Shown: positions 1,023 through 64,000 of the stretch, piece after piece
Layout: each line of letters starts with the position of its first letter
Position numbering within the stretch: position 1 is the stretch's first letter
Notes under the pieces: generated by a model
Told to the model about the DNA's origin: nothing
Seen by the model: only the letters and a program-made list of their open reading frames with translations
Database searches by the model: none
Assembly: GCA_040772545.1 (NCBI GenBank)
Contig: JAXGXY010000004.1
Location: 25,613 to 89,612, forward strand
DNA: 64,000 nucleotides
From: Christensenellales bacterium
Lineage (GTDB): Bacteria; Bacillota; Clostridia; Christensenellales; UBA1431
Direction: 5' to 3'
Position numbers and translations under genes: made by a program

Positions 1023-1799
1023 TTGTCCAAAGTGATGGCCGTAGCCAACCAAAAAGGCGGTGTGGGGAAGACGACGACCACCGTAAACTGCAGCGCCGCC
1101 CTTGCTCTGCGGGGGAAACGCGTGCTGGTGGTGGACGTCGACCCGCAGGGAAACTCCACGAGCGGACTGGGGCTGAACAGGGACGACGGGCAACTCTCGG
1201 TCTACGACGTGCTGGTGAACGGCGCCCCGATCGAAGACGCGGTATTGCCCACGCAGGTGGAGGGACTTTTCGCCGTCCCTTCGGCGGTGAAGCTAGCGGG
1301 CGCCGAAGTGGAAATGGTTTCGATGGAACGGCGCGAGTACATCGTCAAGAACGCGCTGAGGAAAATCCGCGGCGGGTACGACTTCATCTTCATGGACTGT
1401 CCCCCTTCGCTGGGGCTGTTGACGGTCAACGCCCTGACCGCGGCCGATACGGTGCTGGTCCCCATCCAGTGCGAATACTATGCGCTCGAGGGCGTCACGC
1501 AGCTCATCAACACGATACGCCTGGTAAAAAAGCGGCTCAACCCCGGCCTGGAAATAGAAGGCGTCCTGCTCACGATGTTTGACCCGAGGACGCGGCTGTC
1601 GCTGCAGGTGGTGGACGAGGTGAAGGCGTATTTCAAGCATAAGGTCTTCAGTTCGCTCGTCCCGCGCAATGTGCGGCTGGGGGAAGCGCCCAGCTTCGGG
1701 ATGCCCATCATGCTCTACGATTCCCAGTGCGCCGGGGCGCGCGCGTACGAGTATCTGGCCGAAGAGATCATAGAAAAGAACGAGGAGGCGGCGGTATGA
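1023..1799 (+). CDS. soj: Chromosome partitioning ATPase Soj/ParA
   Basis: Deviant Walker A motif MAVANQKGGVGKTTTTVN, plus VLVVDVDPQGNST and ParA-type C-terminal motifs. The TTG start gives an N-terminal length like Bacillus Soj. GGAG lies 9 nt upstream. Confidence 0.95.
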   Translation: MSKVMAVANQKGGVGKTTTTVNCSAALALRGKRVLVVDVDPQGNSTSGLGLNRDDGQLSVYDVLVNGAPIEDAVLPTQVEGLFAVPSAVKLAGAEVEMVSMERREYIVKNALRKIRGGYDFIFMDCPPSLGLLTVNALTAADTVLVPIQCEYYALEGVTQLINTIRLVKKRLNPGLEIEGVLLTMFDPRTRLSLQVVDEVKAYFKHKVFSSLVPRNVRLGEAPSFGMPIMLYDSQCAGARAYEYLAEEIIEKNEEAAV

Positions 1800-2680
1800 G
1801 CGCAAAGCAGCAGCGGCGGCTAGGAAAGGGGCTCCAGGCGCTTATAGGGTCCGAAGAACCCGTATGGGACGAGCGGCAGCCCGGCGAAAAGGGCGTGCGC
1901 CTCATCGACGTCCTGCGCATCGATCCCAACCCCAAGCAGGCGCGCAAACGCTTCGACAAGGAGGCGCTCGAAGGCCTCGCGCAATCCATAGCGATCCACG
2001 GCGTGATCCAGCCGCTGATCGTCGGGGAACAGGGGGAAAGGTACCGCCTGATCGCGGGCGAACGCCGGTGGCGGGCCGCCAAAATGGCGGGCCTGGACAG
2101 GGTGCCCGCCATCGTGACCGACATGGAGGACCGCGCGCAGGTGGAGGTATCGCTGGTGGAGAACCTTCAGCGCGAGGACCTCAACCCGCTCGAAGAGGCG
2201 GCGGGCATCAGATTCCTGATAGAAGAATACGGCCTGACGCAGGAGTCCGCGGCCGAGCGCGTCGGGAAGAGCCGCAGCGCCATAGCGAACGCGCTGAGGC
2301 TTTTGACGCTGCCTTCGCCCGTACAGGACCTGATCTGGACGGGGGAGTTAAGCGCAGGCCACGCGCGCGCCCTGGTCGGGATCGAAGACCAGGATCTTCA
2401 GCAGCGCATGGCAAAAAAGGCGGTCGAAGACGGGCTGTCGGTGCGCGAGATGGAAGCGCTTAAAAGAGACGTGCAGCCCGCGAGGCGCAGGAAGGCCGGC
2501 GATGAGGCGATCCCGCTGGAACTCTTCGAGATGCAGGAGTGCCTGCAAAAAGCGACAGGGATGCGCGTGCGGATCGTGGGAAGCACAAACAGGGGCAGGA
2601 TCACGATAGAATACTACAACAGGGAAGAGATCGAACGGCTCTACGCGATCTTGCAGGACAAAGACGAATGTTTCACGTGA
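1796..2680 (+). CDS. parB: Chromosome partitioning protein ParB/Spo0J
   Basis: MSAKQQRRLGKGLQALI..IDPNPKQARKRFD..LIAGERRWRAAK..VENLQREDLNPLEEA, HTH and C-terminal dimerisation region. The ATG at 1796 overlaps the soj stop (ATGA). The track start at 1727 is an unlikely extension. Confidence 0.95.
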   Translation: MSAKQQRRLGKGLQALIGSEEPVWDERQPGEKGVRLIDVLRIDPNPKQARKRFDKEALEGLAQSIAIHGVIQPLIVGEQGERYRLIAGERRWRAAKMAGLDRVPAIVTDMEDRAQVEVSLVENLQREDLNPLEEAAGIRFLIEEYGLTQESAAERVGKSRSAIANALRLLTLPSPVQDLIWTGELSAGHARALVGIEDQDLQQRMAKKAVEDGLSVREMEALKRDVQPARRRKAGDEAIPLELFEMQECLQKATGMRVRIVGSTNRGRITIEYYNREEIERLYAILQDKDECFT

Positions 2681-2684: not shown

Positions 2685-2686
2685 CG

Positions 2687-3110
2687 CCGGAGCAAACTCC
2701 GCACCATCGTCGGAGCAAACTCCGCACCGCTCACCTTCGCGCAAGCGCAAAGGCTCGCTCGCTCCGTTGCTCCTCCTCTTCCCCGCAAAGCTGCGCTTTG
2801 CGGGGAGTTGTTCGGGCGGAGCTTCGTAGGATTGTCCGGGCGAGGCATCGCGGCAAGTTGCTTGGGTGGGGCTTTGCGGGGGTTGTTCGGGATGGGCTTC
2901 GCTCGTCGGAGCAAACTCCGCACCGCTCACCTTCTCGCAAGCGCAAAGGTTCGCTCGCTCCGTTGCTCCTCCTCTTCCCCGCAAAGCTATGCTTTGCGGG
3001 GAGTTGTTCGAGCGGAGCTTCGTAGGATTGTCCGGGCGAGGCATCGAAGCAAGTTGCTTGGGCGGGGCTTCACGGGAGATGTTTAAGCAGGGCTTCGAGT
3101 GATGGTTCGG
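2687..3110 (-). repeat. Type I hairpin-cassette repeats, two tandem ~196-bp units
   Basis: CGGAGCAAACTCCG hairpins occur at 2688, 2711 and 2907. CCCCGCAAAGC-nnn-GCTTTGCGGGG hairpins occur at 2781-2805 and 2977-3001, giving a 196-bp period. The sequence is the reverse complement of modules in 8994-10161. Confidence 0.9.
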
Positions 3111-3436: not shown

Positions 3437-3452
3437 CGTTTCACGTGAAACA
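3437..3452. promoter_or_regulatory. parS: Second parS site (15/16), 3 nt beyond the cvpA stop
   Basis: cGTTTCACGTGAAACa. It has the same perfect 14-bp core as 2670-2683. Confidence 0.8.
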
Positions 3453-6674: not shown

Positions 6675-7511
6675 ATGATTCCTTTTACGAAGATGCACGG
6701 CCTGGGGAACGACTTCGTCCTCGTCGAGAGCCGCCACCTGGAAGGCATGGACGTTGCGGAAGCGGCCAGGCGCATGTGCGAGAGGCATACGGGTATCGGC
6801 GCGGACGGCCTGCTGATCGTCACGCCGTCCAAAAGGGCGGACATCGGGATGCGGATCATCAACAGGGACGGGACGGAGGCCGAGATGTGCGGCAACGGCA
6901 TCCGCTGCCTGGCGCGCTACGCCTACGACTGCGACCTCGTGAAGGAAGAGTGCTTCTGTGTGGAAACGCTCGCGGGGATCCTCCGGCCGAGGCTCGGGTT
7001 CGGAAGGGACGGCGAGGTGCTCTGTGTGGAGGTGGACATGGGCGCCCCGGTCCTCGAGCGCGCCATGATACCGATGACGGGGCCGAAAGGCCGCGTGCTC
7101 GACGAACCGCTGGACACTAATATGGGGGCGGTCCGCCTGAGCATGGTGCGCATGGGCGTTCCGCACGCGGTCGTTTTCGTGGACGACATCGGCGACGTCG
7201 GCGTCGAGGCGCTCGGGAGGGCGGTGGAGACGCACCCGGCGTTCCCGGAAAGGACCAACGTCAATTTCGTCGAGGTCCTCGGCGAAGGCGAGATCGCGGT
7301 GCGCACGTGGGAACGCGGCGCAGGCGCCACCCTCGCGTGCGGCACCGGCGTCTGCGCGAGCGCCGTGGCCGCGAACCTTCTGGGGCGCACAGAGAAAAGG
7401 GTCAGGGTCCGGCTCGAGCTGGGCACGCTCGAAATCACCCTAGCAAAAGACGGGCGCGTGCTGATGAAGGGACCGGCCCAGTACGTGTTCGAAGGGGAGT
7501 ACCAGCTTTGA
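6675..7511 (+). CDS. dapF: Diaminopimelate epimerase
   Basis: MIPFTKMHGLGNDFVLVE, catalytic CGNGIRCLARY and a second Cys in ACGTGVCA. AGAGGA RBS precedes the ATG at 6675. The track start at 6660 is less likely. Confidence 0.93.
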   Translation: MIPFTKMHGLGNDFVLVESRHLEGMDVAEAARRMCERHTGIGADGLLIVTPSKRADIGMRIINRDGTEAEMCGNGIRCLARYAYDCDLVKEECFCVETLAGILRPRLGFGRDGEVLCVEVDMGAPVLERAMIPMTGPKGRVLDEPLDTNMGAVRLSMVRMGVPHAVVFVDDIGDVGVEALGRAVETHPAFPERTNVNFVEVLGEGEIAVRTWERGAGATLACGTGVCASAVAANLLGRTEKRVRVRLELGTLEITLAKDGRVLMKGPAQYVFEGEYQL

Positions 7512-8938
7512 TACGGCTTCCGGATTGGACCATCCCGGTCACCGACGCCTTCGCGCGCGCGGGCGTGGACCTTTACGTCGTGGGCGGCGGTGTGCGAAAC
7601 CCGCTCCTCGGCCTTGGCACCTCGGAGCTCGACATGTGCTCGGGGCTGATGCCCGACGGGCTGACGGAGCTTTTAAGGGACGTACAGGGCGTGCGCGCGA
7701 CGGTGATAAGCCGCGAACTCGGCACGGTCCGCATAGACGTAGAGGGCGCAAAAGGCCGATTCATAGAGCATACGGTACTCAGGACGGAAAACTACGGCGG
7801 GGGCGGGCACCACCGCCCAAATAGGGTAAAAACGGGGGTTTCGATCGAAGAAGACGCCGGCAGGCGCGATTTCACCGTCAACGCGGTCTATTACGACGTG
7901 GCGCGCAAAAAGGTCCTCGACCCCGTGGGCGGCCTCAAAGACATCGAAAACAGGCGGATACGGACCGTGCGGGAAGACACGCTGTTTGATGACGCGCTGC
8001 GCATCCTCAGGATGGTGCGCTTCGCCTGCGAACTCGGCTTCACGATAGAGGAAGCGACGTTTAAGGCCGCGGCCCGAAACGTCGACATGCTCCGCGACAT
8101 AGCGCCCGAGCGCAGGGCGGAGGAGCTCTCCAAAATCCTTTTGAGCGACGCGAAGTACGCCCCGCCCGAACAAGCGGACGGGGCGGCCTGCCTGCGCGGG
8201 CTGGAGCTTCTCAGGGACCTGGGCGCGCTTGAGTTTTTGCTGCCCCACCTCGAGGGGGGACGGGGGTTTTCGCAACCGAACGAATACCACCAGTACGACG
8301 TCCTATACCACAACTTCTATACCTGCCGCCACATGCCCCCGGTGCTCCACCTGCGCCTCGCCGGACTGCTGCACGACGTGGGCAAGCCTGAGGCCTATGA
8401 GCAGGACGGCAATTTCTACGAGCACGCCCGTGTCGGCTCGGCGCTTGCCGCCGGGATGCTGGGCCAGGACGGCCTGCGCTTCAAGAAGGCGCTCGTCGAA
8501 AGGGTATGCCTGCTGATAGAAGAACATATGTTCGACCTTGACGGCAGTGCGAAGGAGACCACGGTGCGGCTGCGTTTCGCGACGCTTGGCCTTCCGGTCG
8601 CGTGCGAACTCCTGTGGCTGCGCCGCGCGGACATACTGGGCTCGCGCGAGGGGAACAGCGCCGAGTTCTTCATCCGCAAATGGGGGAGCGTGCTGCTGGC
8701 GCTGCAAAGGGACGGGACGCCGCCTTCACCGGACGCGCTCGAGATAGGCGGCGAGGACATCATGCGGGTCTGCGGCCTCGGCCCCGGCGAACGGGTCGGC
8801 CTGATAAAAGAAAGGCTCTGGCGGCACTGCGTGTACGACCCGCGCCAGAACACGCGCGAGCGGCTCCTTCGGCGGGCCGTGAGCCTGAACCGTGAACTGC
8901 CGCCCGGCATGACGAAGAAAGCCAAAAAGAAGCGATAA
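7508..8938 (+). CDS. cca: CCA-adding enzyme / poly(A) polymerase-family tRNA nucleotidyltransferase with HD domain
   Basis: VVGGGVRNPLLG, RRDFTVNAVYYD and LLHDVGKP (HD) motifs. The TTG at 7508 overlaps the dapF stop. The track ORF start at 7307 lies inside dapF. Confidence 0.85.
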   Translation: MIRLPDWTIPVTDAFARAGVDLYVVGGGVRNPLLGLGTSELDMCSGLMPDGLTELLRDVQGVRATVISRELGTVRIDVEGAKGRFIEHTVLRTENYGGGGHHRPNRVKTGVSIEEDAGRRDFTVNAVYYDVARKKVLDPVGGLKDIENRRIRTVREDTLFDDALRILRMVRFACELGFTIEEATFKAAARNVDMLRDIAPERRAEELSKILLSDAKYAPPEQADGAACLRGLELLRDLGALEFLLPHLEGGRGFSQPNEYHQYDVLYHNFYTCRHMPPVLHLRLAGLLHDVGKPEAYEQDGNFYEHARVGSALAAGMLGQDGLRFKKALVERVCLLIEEHMFDLDGSAKETTVRLRFATLGLPVACELLWLRRADILGSREGNSAEFFIRKWGSVLLALQRDGTPPSPDALEIGGEDIMRVCGLGPGERVGLIKERLWRHCVYDPRQNTRERLLRRAVSLNRELPPGMTKKAKKKR

Positions 8939-8993
8939 TCGGGGCAACAAACCTCGTTTGCGTTTTGCAGGCCGCCGACAAACACGTCATTGG

Positions 8994-10161
8994 TCGACCT
9001 GTTTTCTATGTGGCGGCAGTATTTGCCGCGCACTCCATGGCAAAGTCCATCCCGAACAACTCCCGCAAAGCCTCGCCCGGACAATCCTACGAAGCCCCGC
9101 CTAAAACAAAACCTACGAAGCCCCGCCCGAACAACTTCCGACGAAGCCTATCCTGAAAAATCCCTGCAAAGCCCTACCAGAATGAACCCCCGCAAAGCGC
9201 AGCTTTGCGGGGAAGAGGAGGAGCAACGGAGCGGTGCGAAGAATCCCCGGAGAGCGCGGAGCGCAAAGGGGATTATGAGCGGAGCGAAGTTTGCTCCGAC
9301 GAGGGAGCGGTGCGAAGAATCCCCGGAGCGCGGAGCGCAAAGGGGATTATGAGCGGAGCGAAGTTTGCTCCGACGAGGGAGCGATGCGAAGAATCCCCGG
9401 AGCGCGGAGCGCAAAGGGGATTTTGAGCGGAGCGAAGTTTGCTCCGACGATGGTGCGAAGTTTGCTCCGACGAGCGAAGCCCAGCCAGAGCAATGCCCGC
9501 AAAGCCCCGCTTGGACAAACCTACGAAGCCCTGCCTAAAACAAAACCTACGAAGTCCCGCCCGAACAACTTCCCGCGAAGCCTATCCTGAAAAATCTCTG
9601 CAAAGCCCTACCAGAATGAATCCCCGCAAAGCGTAGCTTTGCGGGGAAGAGGAGGAGCAACGGAGCGGTGCGAAGAATCCTCGGAGCGCGGAGCGCAAAG
9701 GGGATTATGAGCGGAGCGAAGTTTGCTCCGACGATGGTGCGAAGTTTGCTCCGACGAGCGAAGCCCAGCCAGAGCAATGCCCGCAAAGCCCCGCTTTGAC
9801 AATCCTACGAAGTCCCGCCCGAACAACTTCCCGCGAAGCCTATCCTGAAAAATCTCTGCAAAGCCCTACCAGAATGAATCCCCGCAGAGCGCAGCTTTGC
9901 GGGGAAGAGGAGGAGCAACGGAGCGGTGCGAAGAATCCCCGGAGCGCGAAGCGCAAAGGGGATTATGAGCGGAGCGAAGTTTGCTCCGACGAGGGAGCGG
10001 TGCGAAGAATCCCCGGAGCGCGAAGCGCAAAGGGGATTATGAGCGGAGCGAAGTTTGCTCCGACGAGGGAGCAGTGCGAAGAATCCCCGGAGCGCGAAGC
10101 GCAAAGGGGATTATGAGTGGAGCGAAGTTTACTCCGACGATGGTGCGAAGTTTGCCCGACG
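8994..10161 (+). repeat. Type I hairpin-cassette repeat array (nested tandem repeats)
   Basis: There are three super-units, each with a CCCCGCAAAGC-nnn-GCTTTGCGGGG hairpin (9188-9212, 9622-9646, 9880-9904). These are followed by 3, 1 and 3 copies of a 74-bp unit, starting at 9236/9312/9386, 9669, and 9928/10002/10076. Boundaries are approximate. Confidence 0.9.
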
Positions 10162-15247: not shown

Positions 15248-15273
15248 CCGCATGGCATCTCGTTGTCATCGAA

Positions 15274-15611
15274 AAACTCCCGGCTGTGCCGCGGGTTTCA
15301 AAAAAGCTTAAATGCAGGGGGTGTGGGGGATAATCCCCCACTTCCAATCCGATCTGACGACTCGCCGGAGCAAAATTTGCACCGCTCATCTTCGCGCGGA
15401 GCGCAAAGGCTCGCTCGCTGCGCTCCACCCCAAGCGGCAAGCCGCGAGGGGACCCCGGTTGCTCCTCCACTTCCCCACAAAGCTCCGCTTTGAGGGGGCC
15501 CCGGAGGCAGAAAAATGCCACATGGAGCGGCATTAAACCACAAAGGAAACCGTCGACAAGCCTCGAAGGGATTTGTCGAGGGCCAGAAACCCCCGGCTGT
15601 GCCGGGGGTTT
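15274..15611. repeat. Composite repeat: type II element (15299-15586) interrupted by a type I segment (~15362-15508), bracketed by a duplicated 25-bp hairpin
   Basis: AAACTCCCGGCTGTGCCGCGGGTTT (15274-15298) versus AAACCCCCGGCTGTGCCGGGGGTTT (15587-15611) match at 23/25. The inner ends align with the reverse complement of 62264-62425. The middle carries the CGGAGCAAA.. and CCCCACAAAGC..GCTTTGAGGGG modules. Confidence 0.85.
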
Positions 15612-15723
15612 ACGATTAATGGGGAATTGCTGTACCGGAAACAACGAAAACCAATAATGCCGCCGTAGCGGTAGTTCGCACAAGAGGAAGAACCGCCGCA
15701 GACATGCGCCGGATAAAGCCGCT

Positions 15724-43224: not shown

Positions 43225-46077
43225 ATGGCGAACACAACGGGGGGGAGCGGCGTGAAGAAACGGGTAGCGACGGTTTTACTCGCATTGCTGGTGATGCTCA
43301 GCGGTTGGACCTTATTGGATCCACAGACGGCATACGCGGCGTTCAATGGAATTATCAAGGTCCGCATATCGCCTTCCAATCACTCGTCCGACATCCGGGT
43401 CATACCCCACGGGAAGTATTTCATCGCCCAGGCGAAAAGCGTACAACTCCTCGACGTCGAGTACAAGGTCCACCGTTCGGGCAGCAACGTGCAGCTCAAG
43501 CACGGCGGCACGGTGCTCTATTCCGGGCCGAAGCTTACTATCACGCGCGCCGCCGGGAACACGGAGGAAAACTTCATCGTGTTTCCCTACAGCCCGACGC
43601 ATAAGACGCGCACGAACTACTACGGGAACATCGAGTTTTCGGTGAATTCGGGCCTGTGCGCGGTGAACCACGTCTACGTCGAAGACTACGTGATGGGCGT
43701 GGCCCCCTACGAGATGAGCCCGAGCTGGCCGGCGCAGGCGCTCAGGGCGCAGGCCGTCTGCGCGCGCAACTACGGCGTTCGGGCGGCGCTCGCGAGCCCC
43801 TCGGGGACCTGGCACCTCGGGGACACGGCAAGTTCGCAGGTCTACAAGGGCGTTCCGGGCGTGAGTTCGTCGGGGACCATCGACTACACCGCGTACAACA
43901 AAGTCAAGAGCGCCGTCGAGGGCACGTCCCGCAAGGTGATGAAGTACGACGGCGCCGTGTTTTCCGCGTACTACTCCGCCTGGAACGGCGGGGAGACGCT
44001 GAACGTACGCGGCTGGACGGGGAACACGTCGTCAGCCTACGGTTATACCGTCGTCAAATCCGACGTGTACGACGACAAGCGCTGCAAGGACGCCTACTGG
44101 ATCACGCGGACCATCAACACATCGCTTTATTCACCGACCGGCAACGACATCAACATGGCCGTGCAGAACATGCTCGTCAAAAAATACAGGGAGCAATACG
44201 GCGTTACGGCTGCCGATGTATACGTCGTGAGCACGACGGGGATCAAAGGGCAGAAGCCGTCCGGCGTGTCCGAAGTTTCGCTCGTCTACGAAAATTTCTA
44301 CTGCGATGTGAGGTTCAATACGGAGTCGGCCACCAAAAAGGTCACGTTCACGGACACTGACCTCAAGCAGGCCCTCGGCATCAGTTCCTCATACATTGCG
44401 TTCAGGATCGAGAATAATTCGGACGGCACGACGACGCTGTACAACGTGCGCTACGGCCACGGGGTGGGGATGAGCCAGCGCGGCGCGCAGCAGATGGCCA
44501 ACGAGGGCATGGGCCACACGGACATCCTGCGCTTCTACTACAACGGGATCACGTTCAGCACGCTTCCCGTTTCTCCGCCTTCGCTGCCGGCCATGCCGGA
44601 CCAGGGGTCGGAAACGGATAAGGAGTACGTCGGGAAAGTTATCAACTGCACCAGCTACGTAAACGTGCGCTCGGGCCCGGGCACCTCCTCGGCGCTGGTC
44701 GGCACGGCCCCGAAAAACGCCATATACCCCGTAAAAAAGGCGTATTATACGAGCGACTGGCATCAGATCGATTACAACGGCAAGACGGCGTACATCCACA
44801 GGGACTATCTCGCGCTGACGCCCGTGCAGCAGGACACGACGGCCAAGGCGGTAGGCAAGGCGACGCGCAGTTCGTACGTGTACGCATCGGCCACCACGAC
44901 GTCCAGCAAGCTGCTGGCGCTGGGAACGGGGAACCTCATGGACATCCTGGACGTTTCCGGCAACTTCTATAAAGTCGTTGCGGCGGGCAAGACGGGTTAT
45001 GTTCCGATTGCCCACGTGACCATCGTATCGGGCAGCGTAGCGGCGCCGACGCCGAAACCGACGCTGAAACCGACGCCGAAGCCGACGCCGAAACCCACGC
45101 CGAAGCCCACGCCGAAGCCCACGCCGAAGCCCACCGCGGCGTCGAAGGCGGTAGCCAAAGCCACGCGCTTCACGTACGTGTACAAGTCCTCCACGACCTC
45201 GTCGGCAAAGCTCCTCCAGCTCGGCCCCGGGAACCTGATGGACGTGCTGGGCACGGCGGGCAAACTCTATAAAGTGGTTGCGGCGGGAAAAACGGGGTAC
45301 GTGCCCATTTCCCACGTGTCGATCGTGTCGGGCAGCATATCGACGCCGAAGCCTACGCCCAAACCGACGCCGAAGCCTACGCCTAAGCCCACCCAGGCGT
45401 CGAAGGCAGTCGCCAAAGCCACGCGCTTCACGTACGTGTACAAGTCCGCTTCGACCTCGTCGACGAAGGTCCTTCAGCTCGGCACCGGAAACCTGATGGA
45501 CGTGCTGGGCACGTCGGGCAGCTACTATAAAGTGGTTGCGGCGGGGAAGACGGGGTACGTTCCGAAATCCCACTTGTCGATCGTATCGGGCAGCATATCG
45601 ACGCCTAAGCCTACGCCAAAACCGACGCCGAAACCCGCCGACACAAAAACAATAGGGAAAGTGGTCAACTGCAACAGCTACGTGAATGTGCGCTCGGGTC
45701 CCGGCACGTCGAAGGCGCTGGTCGGCACGGCCCCGAAGGGCGCGGAATATCCCGTGAAAAAGGCGTTCTATACGAGCAGCTGGCATCAGATCGAATACAA
45801 GGGCAAGACGGCATACATCCACAAGGACTATCTCAAGATTACGACAGCGCCGAAGCCGAAGCCTACCGCGGCGTCCAAAGCCGTGGCCAAAGCCACGCGC
45901 TTCACGTACGTGTACAAGTCCTCCACGACCTCGTCGTCGAAGCTGCTGAAGCTCGGCCCGGGGAACCTGATGGACGTGCTGGGCACGGCGGGCAAACTCT
46001 ATAAAGTGGTTGCGGCAGGCAAGACGGGGTACGTGCCCGTTTCCCACGTGTCGATCGTGTCGGGCAGCGTCAGCTAA
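43225..46077 (+). CDS. Secreted SpoIID/LytB-domain protein with six SH3b-like repeats and (K/T)P linkers
   Basis: Signal-like N-terminus, SpoIID motifs (YVEDYVMGVAPYEM, ALRAQAVCARNYG, YGHGVGMSQRGAQQMA), two NCxSYVNVRSGPGTS SH3b domains, four KATRFTYVYKS...GKTGYVP repeats, and KPTPKPTP linkers. Confidence 0.85.
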   Translation: MANTTGGSGVKKRVATVLLALLVMLSGWTLLDPQTAYAAFNGIIKVRISPSNHSSDIRVIPHGKYFIAQAKSVQLLDVEYKVHRSGSNVQLKHGGTVLYSGPKLTITRAAGNTEENFIVFPYSPTHKTRTNYYGNIEFSVNSGLCAVNHVYVEDYVMGVAPYEMSPSWPAQALRAQAVCARNYGVRAALASPSGTWHLGDTASSQVYKGVPGVSSSGTIDYTAYNKVKSAVEGTSRKVMKYDGAVFSAYYSAWNGGETLNVRGWTGNTSSAYGYTVVKSDVYDDKRCKDAYWITRTINTSLYSPTGNDINMAVQNMLVKKYREQYGVTAADVYVVSTTGIKGQKPSGVSEVSLVYENFYCDVRFNTESATKKVTFTDTDLKQALGISSSYIAFRIENNSDGTTTLYNVRYGHGVGMSQRGAQQMANEGMGHTDILRFYYNGITFSTLPVSPPSLPAMPDQGSETDKEYVGKVINCTSYVNVRSGPGTSSALVGTAPKNAIYPVKKAYYTSDWHQIDYNGKTAYIHRDYLALTPVQQDTTAKAVGKATRSSYVYASATTTSSKLLALGTGNLMDILDVSGNFYKVVAAGKTGYVPIAHVTIVSGSVAAPTPKPTLKPTPKPTPKPTPKPTPKPTPKPTAASKAVAKATRFTYVYKSSTTSSAKLLQLGPGNLMDVLGTAGKLYKVVAAGKTGYVPISHVSIVSGSISTPKPTPKPTPKPTPKPTQASKAVAKATRFTYVYKSASTSSTKVLQLGTGNLMDVLGTSGSYYKVVAAGKTGYVPKSHLSIVSGSISTPKPTPKPTPKPADTKTIGKVVNCNSYVNVRSGPGTSKALVGTAPKGAEYPVKKAFYTSSWHQIEYKGKTAYIHKDYLKITTAPKPKPTAASKAVAKATRFTYVYKSSTTSSSKLLKLGPGNLMDVLGTAGKLYKVVAAGKTGYVPVSHVSIVSGSVS
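44632..46074 (+). repeat. Intragenic domain repeats (near-identical at DNA level)
   Basis: 45139-45335 and 45868-46062 are almost identical nucleotide stretches. The CCGAARCCSACG (KPTP) micro-repeat spans 45049-45132 and recurs at ~45346-45390 and ~45603-45635. Confidence 0.85.
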
Positions 46078-46235
46078 ACCGTGTTGATCCAGTCGAACCG
46101 TCCGAGAAAAGCCTTAGCCGCGTACGCGCCTTTGCCGGCGGGACGACAAAGGACGTCGCCGGGCAATCGGGCAAGACGGCACGCCGGAGGATAAAAAGGC
46201 TCCTGCAACGCGCCGGGTTCTGCCTGGGATTAAAG

Positions 46236-47988: not shown

Positions 47989-48276
47989 GGTGCTAGCACC
48001 CGGCCAGACTATAAAACAAGCCGCGCCGCCGGGGTCGAGCGTTGTTTTGTCAAATAGAAGCTTTACCCGGAAGATTTCCACAGCGCTTTACCCAGGCAAA
48101 TCCTTCAAAACCTTGCACGAATGAATCCCACAGGGCCTCACCTGAACAAACCGCACAAAGCGAAGCTTTGGGCGGAAGAGGAGGAGCAACGGAGCGGTGC
48201 GAGGAACCCCCGACGCGCGCAGCGCATAGGGGGTTACGGGCGAAGCGGAGTTTGCTCCGACGTGGGTGCTAGCACC
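47989..48276 (+). repeat. Type I repeat element (48001-48264) bracketed by a duplicated 12-bp palindrome
   Basis: GGTGCTAGCACC occurs at 47989-48000 and again at 48265-48276. The interior carries a degenerate H1 hairpin (48151-48175), AAGAGGAGGAGCAACGGAGCG and the terminal CGGAGTTTGCTCCG (48246-48259). Confidence 0.85.
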
Positions 48277-61433: not shown

Positions 61434-62219
61434 ATGGGAAACAGGGTGAAAGTACTCATCGCAGACGACAATTCTCATCAGCTGGCGCAGTGCATGACCT
61501 ACCTCAAGGAGCAACAAGATGTAGAAGTCGTGGGCGTGGCTTCCGACGGGGTTGCCGCGTGGGATGCGTTGGAGAACAATGCCGTAGATGTGTTGATAAT
61601 GGACCTGATCTTACCTAAGCTGGACGGGTTTGGCGTGCTGGAAAGGCTGATTACCAGGACGGACATGCCCAAACCCGACGTCATGGTCCTCTCCGCCTTG
61701 TCGCAGGAGAGCGTTATTCGCCGCGCGTGCGAAATGGGCGTAAAATACTATATGATTAAGCCGTTTGACATCGAAACGCTCTATCACCGGATCATAGACC
61801 TGCACAACGGGCAGACGCCCATTCGAAAGCCCCAGGTCATGGCAGAGCCCAGCCTGCGGTCGAAGCCTTGTTCCAGGGACGAGAAGATTACCGGCGTGTT
61901 CCTTACCATTGGCATCCCCGCCCACATCAAGGGCTACCACTACCTGCGCGAAGCCGTGAAGGCGGTGATGGACGACGGAGACATTATCAACCGGATCACG
62001 AAAGAGCTGTATCCGACGGTGGCAAAACGGTTCAGCGCGACGCCGAGCAAGGTCGAGCGCGCGATACGCCATGCGATAGAGGTGGCCTGGGCCCGAGGGC
62101 GTATCGAGAACATCAACGGAATTTTCGGATATAATATCTATAACAAACACGACAAACCGACCAACGGAGAATTCATCGCGTTGATCGCGGACAAGCTTAA
62201 ACTGGAGATGACGGCTTGA
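61434..62219 (+). CDS. spo0A: Sporulation master regulator Spo0A
   Basis: Receiver domain (KVLIADDN..DVLIMDLILPKLDG) plus the diagnostic Spo0A C-terminal region (GIPAHIKGYHYLREAV...ITKELYPTVAKRF.TPSKVERAIRHAIEVAW). Confidence 0.97.
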   Translation: MGNRVKVLIADDNSHQLAQCMTYLKEQQDVEVVGVASDGVAAWDALENNAVDVLIMDLILPKLDGFGVLERLITRTDMPKPDVMVLSALSQESVIRRACEMGVKYYMIKPFDIETLYHRIIDLHNGQTPIRKPQVMAEPSLRSKPCSRDEKITGVFLTIGIPAHIKGYHYLREAVKAVMDDGDIINRITKELYPTVAKRFSATPSKVERAIRHAIEVAWARGRIENINGIFGYNIYNKHDKPTNGEFIALIADKLKLEMTA

Positions 62220-62263
62220 ATTGGCAAAAACCGGGTCGCACCATCGTATGCTTCGGGCACGTT

Positions 62264-62425
62264 AGGCCGTCGACAAACCCTTCGGGATTTGTCGACGGTT
62301 TTCTGTGCGGTTAAAATGCCGCTATTAGGCGGCATTTTAACCGCCAATCTGATGCACATGTCGTCAGATTGGATTGAAAGCGGGGGATTGCATCCCCCAC
62401 ACCCCCCTGCTAGTAGGCTTTTTTG
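62264..62425. repeat. Type II hairpin-cassette element (four consecutive perfect hairpins); the first hairpin doubles as the spo0A terminator
   Basis: Stems at 62267-62277/62288-62298 (11 bp, then TTTT), 62307-62322/62329-62344 (16 bp), 62346-62352/62364-62370 (7 bp) and 62382-62388/62392-62398 (7 bp). The reverse complement aligns with 15299-15361 and ~15510-15586. Confidence 0.85.
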
Positions 62426-62433
62426 ACAAGCTG

Positions 62434-62462
62434 GGCGGCCGTCATTATAACGGCCGCCTTTT
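62434..62462 (+). terminator. Additional plus-strand terminator hairpin
   Basis: GGCGGCCGT-cattata-ACGGCCGCC followed by TTTT. Confidence 0.55.
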
Positions 62463-62480
62463 CGTATTCTCGTATTCCGT

Positions 62481-63866
62481 TTATTCCTGGATGCCGGGGA
62501 GGCTGGGGATCGTAGCGAAGCCCTGTTCGAGTTCCTCGTCGCTGGGCGCGAAATCGTCCATGCTGCCTTCGTGGTACTGCATGTACGCGCCGATGTCGAA
62601 GGTTCCGTTTCCGGTCAGCCCGAACATGATCGTCTTAGCTTCGCCCCGTTCCTTGCACTCGAGCGCCACGTCGATCGCTGTGCGTATCGCGTGCGCGGAC
62701 TCGGGGGCCGGCAAAATCGCCTCGTGCTTGGCGAACAGCGTTGCCGCCTCGAACACTTCGCGCTGGTAGACGGCGCGCGCTTCGTCGAGGAAGCCGTCGT
62801 TGTACAGCTTGCAAAGCATAGGGGACATGCCGTGGTACCTGAGGCCGCCCGCGTGGATGCTGGCGGGGGTAAAGCTGTTGCCCAGCGTGAACATTTTGGC
62901 AAGCGGCGTCACGTGGCCGACATCGCAGAAATCGTAGGCGAATCTGCCGCGCGTGAACGTCGGGCACGCCGCGGGCTCGACCGCGATGAAGTACGGGTTG
63001 CCCTTGCCGGTCAGCCGGTCCTGCATATAGCCCGCGATCAGGCCGCCGAGGTTGGAGCCGCCGCCCGCACAGCCGATGACGTAATCCGGATACTCATCCA
63101 CCATATCCAGCTGTTTCTTGGCTTCCAGTCCGATGATGGACTGGTGCAGCAGCACGTGGTTCAATACCGAGCCCAGGCCGTAGCGGGTGTTGGGGGTGCT
63201 GGTGGCCGTCTCGACGGCCTCGCTGATGGCCGTCCCCAGGCTGCCCGAATTCTCGGGATCGGCATTCAGCACCGCGCGGCCGCTGTCGGTGAGGTCGCTC
63301 GGGCTCGCGTACACGGTCGCGCCGTAGGTTTCCATAACGCCTTTCCGGTACGGCTTCTGCATGAAACTGCACTTGACCATGAAAACCGTCAGGTCCATAT
63401 CGAAATAGGCGCACGCCATCGCAAGGGCGGTGCCCCACTGGCCGGCGCCCGTTTCGGTGGTCATACGGTTGATGCCCTGCGCCTTGTTGTAGTAAGCCTG
63501 CGCGACGGCGGTGTTGAGCTTATGGCTTCCCGAAGTGTTGTTTCCCTCGTATTTGTAGTAGATGCGCGCCGGCGTGTCCAGCGCTTTTTCGAGGCTGTAG
63601 GCGCGTACCATCGGGGAAGGCCTGTACATCTTGAAATAATCGAGGACAGGGCCCGGGATATCGATGTAGCGCTCCAGGGTCCCTTCCTGCATGCAAAGCG
63701 CTTCTGCAAATATAGGCGTCAGGTCGTCGGGGCCGACGGGCTGCAGGGTGCCGGGGTGCAGATACGGGTCGTGGTCCTCCGGCATATCGGCCCGGATGTT
63801 GTACCACTGCGTCGGGATCTGGTCTTCCGTTAATACGATGCGGTTGGGAATCTTGGTTGATGCCAT
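62481..63866 (-). CDS. TrpB2-type tryptophan synthase beta-like PLP enzyme
   Basis: The N-terminal extension (PTQWYNIRADMPE) and YKYEGNNTSGSHKLNTA (PLP-Lys) are typical of TrpB2. No trpA or other trp genes are adjacent. GAGGAG RBS lies before the ATG at 63866. Confidence 0.85.
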   Translation of the reverse strand: MASTKIPNRIVLTEDQIPTQWYNIRADMPEDHDPYLHPGTLQPVGPDDLTPIFAEALCMQEGTLERYIDIPGPVLDYFKMYRPSPMVRAYSLEKALDTPARIYYKYEGNNTSGSHKLNTAVAQAYYNKAQGINRMTTETGAGQWGTALAMACAYFDMDLTVFMVKCSFMQKPYRKGVMETYGATVYASPSDLTDSGRAVLNADPENSGSLGTAISEAVETATSTPNTRYGLGSVLNHVLLHQSIIGLEAKKQLDMVDEYPDYVIGCAGGGSNLGGLIAGYMQDRLTGKGNPYFIAVEPAACPTFTRGRFAYDFCDVGHVTPLAKMFTLGNSFTPASIHAGGLRYHGMSPMLCKLYNDGFLDEARAVYQREVFEAATLFAKHEAILPAPESAHAIRTAIDVALECKERGEAKTIMFGLTGNGTFDIGAYMQYHEGSMDDFAPSDEELEQGFATIPSLPGIQE

Positions 63867-64000
63867 GACAAAAACTCCTCTCATCTCTTCAAATCTCGTC
63901 GTTTCTCACGATGCAGGCGATTTTCTGCACCTAATATAGCATATGAAAAAAAGGCGGCGATGTCAACCTGTATATTCAAACCAAAGAAGTATCCGTCCGA

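Follow-up and report, generated by a model that had tools for sequence, protein, structure and literature searches.

A modular four-hairpin repeat downstream of spo0A adjoins terminator palindromes in an uncultured Bacillota lineage

The stretch of DNA analysed here, a 64,000-nucleotide (nt) piece of a Christensenellales genome (assembly GCA_040772545.1, contig JAXGXY010000004.1, positions 25,613 to 89,612) that we refer to as the window, carries four consecutive hairpins (hp1 to hp4) in the spacer between spo0A and a gene encoding a TrpB-like pyridoxal phosphate (PLP) enzyme. Reading and folding this spacer showed all four stems to be present as described in a preliminary description of the window, which had called them perfect; hp1, however, has one bulged A. 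The hairpins belong to a repeated element, of which this copy (copy A) ends at 62433 (tail ending GGCTTTTTTGACAAGCTG), not at 62425 as first described. Loci and contigs from other assemblies that were compared with the window are labelled L001 to L028. The features of the spo0A locus are as follows.

61434..62219, plus strand: spo0A, the gene upstream of copy A (Pfam Response_reg and Spo0A_C on the identical protein).
62265..62433, plus strand: copy A, a short form of the element (A module and C module, 0 Type I units), with ends taken from a 7-copy alignment in unrelated flanks.
62267-62298, plus strand: hp1, CCGTCGACAAACCC/GGGATTTGTCGACGG, 11+3 base pairs (bp) with one bulged A, -21.0 kcal/mol.
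62299-62307, plus strand: T-run TTTTCTGTG after hp1, the two together making a terminator-like hairpin that faces spo0A.
62307-62322 with 62329-62344, plus strand: hp2, core AAAATGCCGC/GCGGCATTTT, a perfect 16-bp stem.
62346-62352 with 62364-62370, plus strand: hp3, AATCTGA/TCAGATT, 7 bp.
62364..62398, plus strand: C-module core TCAGATTGGATTGAAAGCGGGGGATTGCATCCCCC, hp4 included, the best conserved part of the element (invariant columns of a 10-copy alignment).
62382-62388 with 62392-62398, plus strand: hp4, 7 bp.
62399..62433, plus strand: tail ACACCCCCCTGCTAGTAGGCTTTTTTGACAAGCTG, consisting of C-run, T6 and the 3' end of the element (alignment of copies).
62434..62464, plus strand: host terminator palindrome GGCGGCCGTCATTATAACGGCCGCC followed by TTTTCG, which adjoins copy A, belongs to the TrpB-side locus and was called by a terminator scan.
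62481..63866, minus strand: gene for the TrpB-like PLP enzyme (PF00291), convergent with spo0A in the window only.

The 261-nt spacer has a minimum free energy of -122.3 kcal/mol, compared with -81.1 +/- 4.6 kcal/mol for 200 dinucleotide shuffles (z = -8.9), and its antisense strand folds nearly as strongly (z = -7.9), as DNA palindromes should. hp1 comprises 14 pairs followed by UUUUCUGUG, that is, a long stem with a U-rich tract, and it starts 47 nt 3' of the spo0A stop codon, so that its sequence is that of an intrinsic terminator: a G+C-rich hairpin with a U-tract (TTTT in the DNA) downstream of a gene. hp1 escaped a simple terminator scan, since the bulge pushes the loop size over the limit of the scan; the hairpin that the scan did call was the next one, at 62433-62459. 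The host palindrome at 62434..62464 folds at -19.1 kcal/mol, the 0.6th percentile of window controls. Comparison of 62434-62458 with positions 4784-4808 of L012 shows the same stems with different loops (CATTATAA versus CCTTGGA), in relatives that are 95.7% identical overall.

Copy A is a 169-nt non-coding interspersed repeat with the 5' end GGCCGTCGAC and the 3' end GACAGYCTG (full-length nhmmer match, E = 8e-59). Eleven insertion sites were found: three in the window and the others in sequences from one uncultured Bacillota lineage, both related metagenome-assembled genomes (MAGs) and contigs of metagenomes. Eight of these loci belong to this lineage, and three, of a diverged form, belong to a sister MAG, Bacillota bacterium MAG021, whose TrpB and Spo0A share 88% and 92% amino-acid identity, respectively, with those of the lineage. 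When species-representative genomes were scanned with the conserved 3' motif, only two matches resulted, both in one sister MAG; the MAG021 copies L001 and L002 are long forms, each holding a single Type I unit in the same place inside the element, and an additional MAG021 copy, L022, has two such units and lies between veg and sipL. A scan of metagenome contigs yielded five further loci (L012 to L016, on contigs of 50-258 kb), and look-ups of flanking proteins yielded the spo0A locus in other assemblies (L003 to L011) and the TrpB locus in GCA_002329665.1 (L017); some look-ups by exact protein gave no hit. Profile searches over the 217 kb of collected sequence revealed no further sites, no other match to the element ends was found in 217 kb of lineage sequence, and the phages, plasmids and viral contigs searched gave 0 matches to the element.

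Seven short-form copies of 155-169 nt align end to end at 90-97% identity within unrelated flanks, which fixes the ends of the element at GGCCGTCGAC... and ...GCTTTTTTGACAG(Y)CTG; four more copies are either diverged or of the long form. The 3' end GACAG(Y)CTG is common to L013, L014, L016 and L022. Within these limits the element is modular. Its A module consists of hp1, the T-run and hp2, its B module of 0, 1, 2 or many Type I units, and its C module of hp3, GGATTGAAAG, hp4, the C-run and the T6 tail. There are no Type I units in copy A, L004, L012, L013, L015 and L016, one in each of copy B, L001 and L002, two in L022, and an array at the 8970-10150 site. The hp2 stem is imperfect in L004, L012, L013, L015 and the second window copy (copy B) and is deleted in L016. 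The hp3 of L004 forms a perfect 13-bp palindrome, and copy B has no hp3. The other copies in the window, with the palindromes that flank copy B, are as follows.

15299..15584, minus strand: copy B, a long form (A module 15506-15584, nested Type I at about 15362-15505, C module 15299-15361).
15587..15611, minus strand: left host palindrome copy AAACCCCCGGCACAGCCGGGGGTTT at copy B (left in the orientation of the element), -20.9 kcal/mol.
15274..15298, minus strand: right host palindrome copy AAACCCGCGGCACAGCCGGGAGTTT at copy B (orientation of the element; from the alignment of left and right flanks).
8970..9035, plus strand: degenerate A module, GGCCGCCGACAAA...TGGTCGACC TGTTTTCTATGTGG with hp2-like GCGGCAgtatTTGCCGC (nhmmer E = 0.006).

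Gapped alignment and a repeat survey showed that copy B equals copy A plus about 145 nt of Type I sequence between hp2 and the 3' module; its hp1 is mismatched (-11 kcal/mol). It is the inverted second copy recognized in the preliminary description, which had taken it for the only other one in the window, and the degenerate A module has to be added: it lies 31 nt past the stop codon of the gene at 7307..8938 and is followed by a 1.1-kb Type I array (9040-10150). At the copy B locus, all strains with an identical DUF3048 protein carry the element. Between L028 (2500-2700) and the window (15248-15723) the entire spacer is replaced, and the difference is not a simple indel.

Eleven contigs encode a Spo0A identical to that of the window. 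The spo0A-veg spacer is 128 bp long and free of the element in L003, L005 and L006; in L004, L007 and L009 it is 344 bp long and carries the element at exactly the left junction seen in the window, the adjacency of spo0A and hp1 being independently confirmed in each of the three. Between L003 and L004 there is a single indel of 213-216 bp, which has TCGG at each of its junctions and lies in surroundings of 97-98.4% identity, and in the outgroups L022 and L023 the spacer is 72 bp long, with one bidirectional terminator and no element. On these sequences, insertion is the simpler reading of the polymorphism. The element thus occupies many unrelated loci with sharp common ends and is polymorphic at spo0A within one species. 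In line with these findings, the suggestion that it is a portable cassette is supported: its flanks are unrelated at the eight lineage loci and the three MAG021 loci, and strains whose Spo0A is identical differ in whether they carry it.

The window's own neighbourhood combines two loci. Its left flank and the ~70 nt with which copy A begins correspond to the spo0A/veg locus (L004, 99.6% identity up to 62428), and the whole element with its right flank corresponds to the bla/TrpB locus (L017, 98.9% over 62264-63994). All other assemblies have veg after spo0A (L003 to L007 and L022) and a beta-lactamase-family gene facing the TrpB-like gene across the element (L012 and L017), and the spo0A-to-TrpB join was found in none of them. 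The join in the window (62220-62480, with the junction within 62265-62335) therefore either arose when two copies recombined or is a chimera made in assembly at the repeat. Several public contigs end at or inside the element, namely L008, L010 and L011 (16-30 nt past the spo0A stop codon) and L025 and L026 (inside copy B), which shows that short-read assemblies of this lineage break at the repeat.

At seven of the eight loci of this lineage, the 34-nt flanks adjoining the element reach the 5th percentile or lower in folding energy among 2782 window controls. L012 has two identical (25/25) copies of GGCGGCCGTCCTTGGACGGCCGCCT, one on each side of the element, with the A6 tract of the original bidirectional terminator at the far left and the T6 tract at the far right. 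The palindromes flanking copy B (15587-15611 and 15274-15298) are 23/25 identical, those in L013 are 22/24 identical, and the flanking hairpins in L014 share stems and A/T tracts and differ in their loops only. Local alignment of left with right flank gave scores of 25 (L012), 20 (L013), 15 (L014) and 21 (copy B), compared with a mean of 6.6 and a maximum of 13 for 102 cross-site control pairs. At these four sites the duplicated segments are ~25 nt long and each covers the whole palindrome; since the loops keep their orientation, the copies are direct and not inverted repeats. The left side retains only the 5' arm (10-14 nt) in L016 and L004, L015 has the left palindrome copy only, with a 3' junction that reads as a deletion between the T-run of the element and that of the terminator, and in L017, which corresponds to the L012 locus, the left copy is missing. 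By site, the duplication is ~25 nt at four, 10-14 nt at two and absent at five. These sequences support the view that the element lodges in intrinsic terminators. The earlier proposal that 3' ends are targeted is supported and takes a sharper form, in that the element adjoins terminator palindromes which are duplicated on both sides at four sites and in part at two.

Conservation among copies differs between modules. When this lineage is compared with MAG021, identity is 88-98% for the C core and 64-71% for the A module. In a covariation test on 10 copies, 87.9% of pair cells held standard pairs versus 87.0% in shuffles, and compensatory change was limited to three double changes versus 1.9 expected, a count reached by 132 of 500 shuffles; there was thus no covariation among these copies. 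Departures from pairing are mostly broken pairs, and hp1 weakens from -21 kcal/mol to between -8 and -19 kcal/mol in diverged or older copies. Broken pairs without compensation therefore mean that the palindromes are inherited and decaying, not maintained by compensatory change.

The explanation that we consider probable is that the four hairpins represent one copy of a lineage-restricted, non-coding, non-autonomous, modular repeat inserted at terminator palindromes. A new copy would insert through cuts at the two feet of a terminator palindrome in its cruciform or hairpin form, and repair or fill-in would duplicate the whole palindrome, in the manner of an unusually long target-site duplication; one of the palindrome copies would later erode, since a palindrome repeated in direct orientation is unstable. 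The mobilising enzyme would be encoded elsewhere. Cuts at the palindrome feet followed by fill-in are favoured by the sharp ends of the element, the purely recipient sequence of the palindromes and the agreement between duplicated length and palindrome. In the sense orientation, the element would add hp1 and UUUU (-21 kcal/mol) as the first terminator-like structure after spo0A, and as judged by sequence this structure probably ends the spo0A mRNA in carrier strains. Termination looks like a by-product of the place and manner of insertion rather than a selected function.

A number of observations weigh against this explanation. The indel at spo0A extends 8 nt and 40 nt past the core ends and is bounded by TCGG, and the "empty" spo0A strains could therefore have arisen through deletion by microhomology. 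No clean empty site was obtained for the loci with fully duplicated palindromes: L028, whose DUF3048 is 98% identical and which is without copy B, has an unrelated 195-bp spacer with a single bidirectional terminator before the glycosyltransferase (GT) gene, and at the TrpB locus the neighbours differ in relatives of 83-88% identity. Duplications are of unequal length (0, 10, 14 or 25 nt), flanking hairpins were found at none of the three MAG021 copies by the same fold control, one of these copies (L022) lies between divergent genes, and neither terminal inverted repeats in the aligned copies nor a partner gene in 217 kb of lineage sequence were found. L016 and L013 carry an extra GGCGGCCGTC/GGCCGTCG beside the left flank, which resembles carried-over donor sequence and fits template switching better; in L013, GGCCGTCG stands on both sides of the left hairpin. 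Finally, a purely parasitic element would not account for a C core that stays near-invariant from lineage to lineage, unless the core is a recognition site.

Only tentatively, the element, and perhaps the Type I repeats as well, may use an insertion route that is new for bacterial small repeats: an extruded palindrome (terminators, possibly also palindromes of other kinds, for example the parS-like sites described below) would be recognized and duplicated in its entirety (~25 bp), and the C core TCAGATYGGATTGRAAGYGGGGGATT would serve as recognition site for the enzyme.

Of the alternatives, the one that survives best, though we think it rather unlikely, accepts the same repeat and dispenses with a dedicated enzyme: replication or repair synthesis would stall at a terminator palindrome, a microhomology-guided template switch to another locus, at which a copy adjoins a palindrome, would copy the element, and on switching back the palindrome would be copied again. 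Such a process would accommodate the variable length of the duplications, the lack of terminal inverted repeats and the apparent donor flank carried at the spo0A site (the 8 and 40 nt mentioned above). It is also consistent with L016, where AAGGCG gives GGCGGCCGTCGAC as in the palindrome arm of L012, with L014, which starts with a hairpin intermediate between hp2 and the flanking host hairpin, with L017 and L015, which resemble microhomology deletions, and with the other palindromes (GGTGCTAGCACC and parS-like) that bracket Type I insertions in the window. It does not readily account for the two palindrome copies in L012, both of which are pure recipient sequence (25/25) with no hybrid junction, or for the fact that the element ends at the same nucleotide in most copies, and the terminator stems of different loci share little sequence that could guide a switch.

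The preliminary description had proposed that the element is selected because it supplies termination, and a host-selected module, either a terminator or insulator cassette or a stabiliser in the 3' untranslated region (UTR) that ends or protects the neighbouring mRNA, is the next alternative; we judge it improbable. hp1 with UUUU is strongly terminator-like, and the sense strand has several more such structures. There is a precedent in SPRITE, a repeat with enrichment at 3' ends of convergent genes (PMC3049150). The orientation of the element relative to its flanking genes, taken from open reading frame (ORF) length with G+C content at third codon positions (GC3) and from called genes, was as follows.

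5 sites, convergent genes: spo0A/veg, bla/TrpB, GT/DUF3048, L014 and L015.
4 sites, tandem genes with the element co-oriented with the upstream gene: the 8970 site, L013, L016 and L001.
1 site, tandem genes with the element antisense, within a lipoprotein gene's leader: L002.
1 site, divergent genes: L022.

Co-orientation at four of the five informative (tandem) sites is in the direction expected for a host-selected terminator, but gives a one-sided binomial p of only 0.19. Convergent genes flank five of the 11 sites, and at 10 of 11 one or both of the flanking genes have their 3' end towards the element, which with n = 11 is likewise not significant (binomial estimate, p ~0.1-0.2). The orientation census called for earlier was drawn up for 11 sites, with four co-oriented tandem copies versus one antisense, and its statistics are underpowered because the scans yielded few copies (2 + 5). 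The argument from the opposite orientation of the two window copies falls away altogether: both lie between convergent genes, so that either orientation faces a 3' end. At copy B, which is inverted and does face the DUF3048 gene as had been noted, transcription from that gene would reach the hairpin formed by CCCCCGGCACAGCCGGGGG and TTTCT (15587-15611) earlier than the mismatched hp1. More generally, in copy B, L013 and L015 a left terminator copy that still has 3-4 T is met before hp1. The left palindrome copy of L012 no longer has a T-run, and hp1 would be needed there. The usual persistence of the left host terminator, the decay of hp1 in old copies without compensatory change, and the dispensability of the element at spo0A in strains that are 97-98% identical all argue against selection for termination, as do the copies that lie antisense in a 5' leader (L002) or between divergent genes (L022).

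A small RNA gene or cis-regulatory RNA, running from TTGTCG-17-TAAAAT to the T6 tail (~105 nt) or related in antisense to the Clostridiales-2 motif (RF02937), is highly improbable. A scan called the promoter-like TTGTCG-17-TAAAAT at 62289-62317, spanning hp1 and hp2, and the C tail (62371-62428) can fold so that GAAAGC pairs with GCUUUU as a closing stem followed by U's; together these could, on sequence grounds, define an element-borne transcript. The C core is near-invariant across lineages whose A modules are 64-71% identical. No Rfam family matched anywhere in the window at its gathering score, and RF02937 was the top sub-threshold hit in three copies, antisense to the C module and sharing with it AGGGGGUG and a GGGGG/CCCCC hairpin. 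The matches are as follows.

15309-15375, plus strand: sub-threshold RF02937 match in copy B.
62275-62414, minus strand: sub-threshold RF02937 match in copy A.
L015 11646-11723, minus strand: sub-threshold RF02937 match.

Their scores (16.1, 22.4 and 22.7 bits) stand against a gathering score of 58.6, the likeness comes from the G/C-run hairpin, and the 3' half of the model is unmatched. The literature search found no description of the Clostridiales-2 motif. The lack of covariation, a hp2-hp3 interval that tolerates deletions and 0 to many inserted units, presence/absence polymorphism and an inconsistent genomic context all speak against an RNA gene.

Further candidate functions were rejected. 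Copy A contains a 36-codon ORF (62316-62426) that lacks a Shine-Dalgarno sequence and whose frame is disrupted in other copies, and the element is not a coding sequence. TTTGTCGAC in hp1 fits the Spo0A "0A box" TGTCGAA at 6 of 7 positions, a chance-level agreement for a 7-mer that is not conserved in the MAG021 copies. An outward promoter from the terminal TTGACA was dismissed, as the flanks lack a consistent -10 and the next feature is a terminator hairpin.

Type I is a second and more abundant family of non-coding repeats, built of CCCCGCAAAGCGnAGCTTTGCGGGG and GGAGCGAAGTTTGCTCCGAC hairpins, and occurs either alone or nested in the four-hairpin (Type II) element, where it always takes one internal position and one relative orientation. 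Its tandem arrays have periods of 74, 196 and ~258 nt. The copies identified are as follows.

Window, from the repeat survey: 2685-3100 (minus strand), 9040-10150 (plus strand), ~48040-48262 (plus strand), and 15362-15505, nested in copy B.
Other loci: L001 251-376, L015 2928-3066 and L022 2900-3150.

The isolated 48-kb unit is flanked by the 12-nt palindrome GGTGCTAGCACC at 47989-48000 and 48265-48276 (13 nt if the pair is taken as an inverted repeat), a bracketing that may resemble the palindrome duplication at Type II copies. parS-like palindromes, TGTTTCACGTGAAACG and its reverse complement, lie at 2669-2684 and 3437-3452 (4 matches versus 0.03 expected). The first of these palindromes and the stop codon of a ParB/Spo0J-like gene (1727..2680) overlap, and the two palindromes, 18 nt identical as an inverted repeat, enclose a 770-bp spacer that contains a Type I array. 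The parS-like sites and the ParB/Spo0J-like gene therefore place the window near a replication origin region. Elsewhere in the window, 44600-46100 has long internal repeats with 12-nt and 258-nt periods (CGACGCCGAAAC...) and is presumably a repetitive coding region. In the sister MAG, six tRNA genes are clustered at L001 552-1131 (minus strand), ~6 kb from the element copy.

If the palindrome duplication is a true footprint of insertion, the repeat seeks out terminators and rebuilds one on each side, which would explain how it multiplies at little cost to its host and would add a new mode of target recognition to bacterial mobile DNA. The element reshapes 3' UTRs, probably ending the spo0A mRNA early in carrier strains, and it marks strain-level polymorphism. 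In addition, short-read assemblies of this uncultured lineage are broken or wrongly joined at the element, and the window may itself be an example.

Several classes of mobile DNA share single properties with the element. Like MITEs (miniature inverted-repeat transposable elements), it is small, non-coding and present in multiple copies in unrelated flanks (11 sites); the terminal inverted repeats that define MITEs are lacking. Palindrome-associated transposable elements (PATEs) derived from IS200/IS605 have subterminal hairpins, make no duplication and recognize a conserved target of 4-5 nt on the 5' side of their left end. Ahead of the element's 5' end the bases vary (TTA, CTA, TTT, TCT, GGC and GCA), no conserved target tetranucleotide was found at the 5' side of the aligned copies, and duplications are present, so that the element does not fit a PATE. 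Group IIC introns are ~2-kb ribozyme-reverse transcriptase retroelements that insert after the hairpin, which is not duplicated. They are mobile and target Rho-independent terminators (PMC4748821), and the choice of a terminator as target is the likeness; the element is 169 nt long with no ORF, no Rfam group II hit was obtained in the window, and it is not such an intron. The duplications of ~25 nt fall within the 16-28 bp reported for target sites of the IS1202 group of insertion sequences (ISs). Those are 1.5-kb ISs with a DDE transposase and 24-26-bp terminal inverted repeats ending in 5'-TGT/ACA-3', and no preferred target is reported for this group (PMC10132070); the element lacks such ends, and no such IS was seen.

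The closest parallels lie among small interspersed repeats. The literature search found no description of terminator duplication by repeats. REP units of enterobacteria are palindromes of 20-40 nt spread by RAYT transposases. REP/BIME sequences affect termination and mRNA stability (see also PMC3049150). Like them, the element is a mosaic of palindromes at gene 3' ends and between convergent genes, but its unit is ~169 nt long with four different hairpins. In architecture it resembles the BOX element of S. pneumoniae, boxA-boxB(n)-boxC, which is described as highly base-paired and intergenic, with a mobilising enzyme that is not known (PMC3049150). Both have fixed end modules and a variable number of internal units (0 to several), the element being built as A-B(n)-C. 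BOX differs in that its terminal inverted repeats pair mutually, whereas the element has none, and in that the internal unit of the element (Type I) also forms independent arrays without end modules. In its manner of working, compared by description, the element is most like SPRITE, a Firmicute repeat described in 2011 in which an 18-bp duplex with a U-rich tract lies mainly at 3' ends and between convergent genes and is a suspected terminator (PMC3049150). Both are small non-coding repeats with a long stem and a U-rich tract. SPRITE is a single 18-bp duplex, whereas the element has four hairpins, is modular and lies between host terminator copies at several sites, an arrangement that the searched passages of that paper did not contain. 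We therefore file it as a new family within a known kind, the small interspersed repeats of bacteria.

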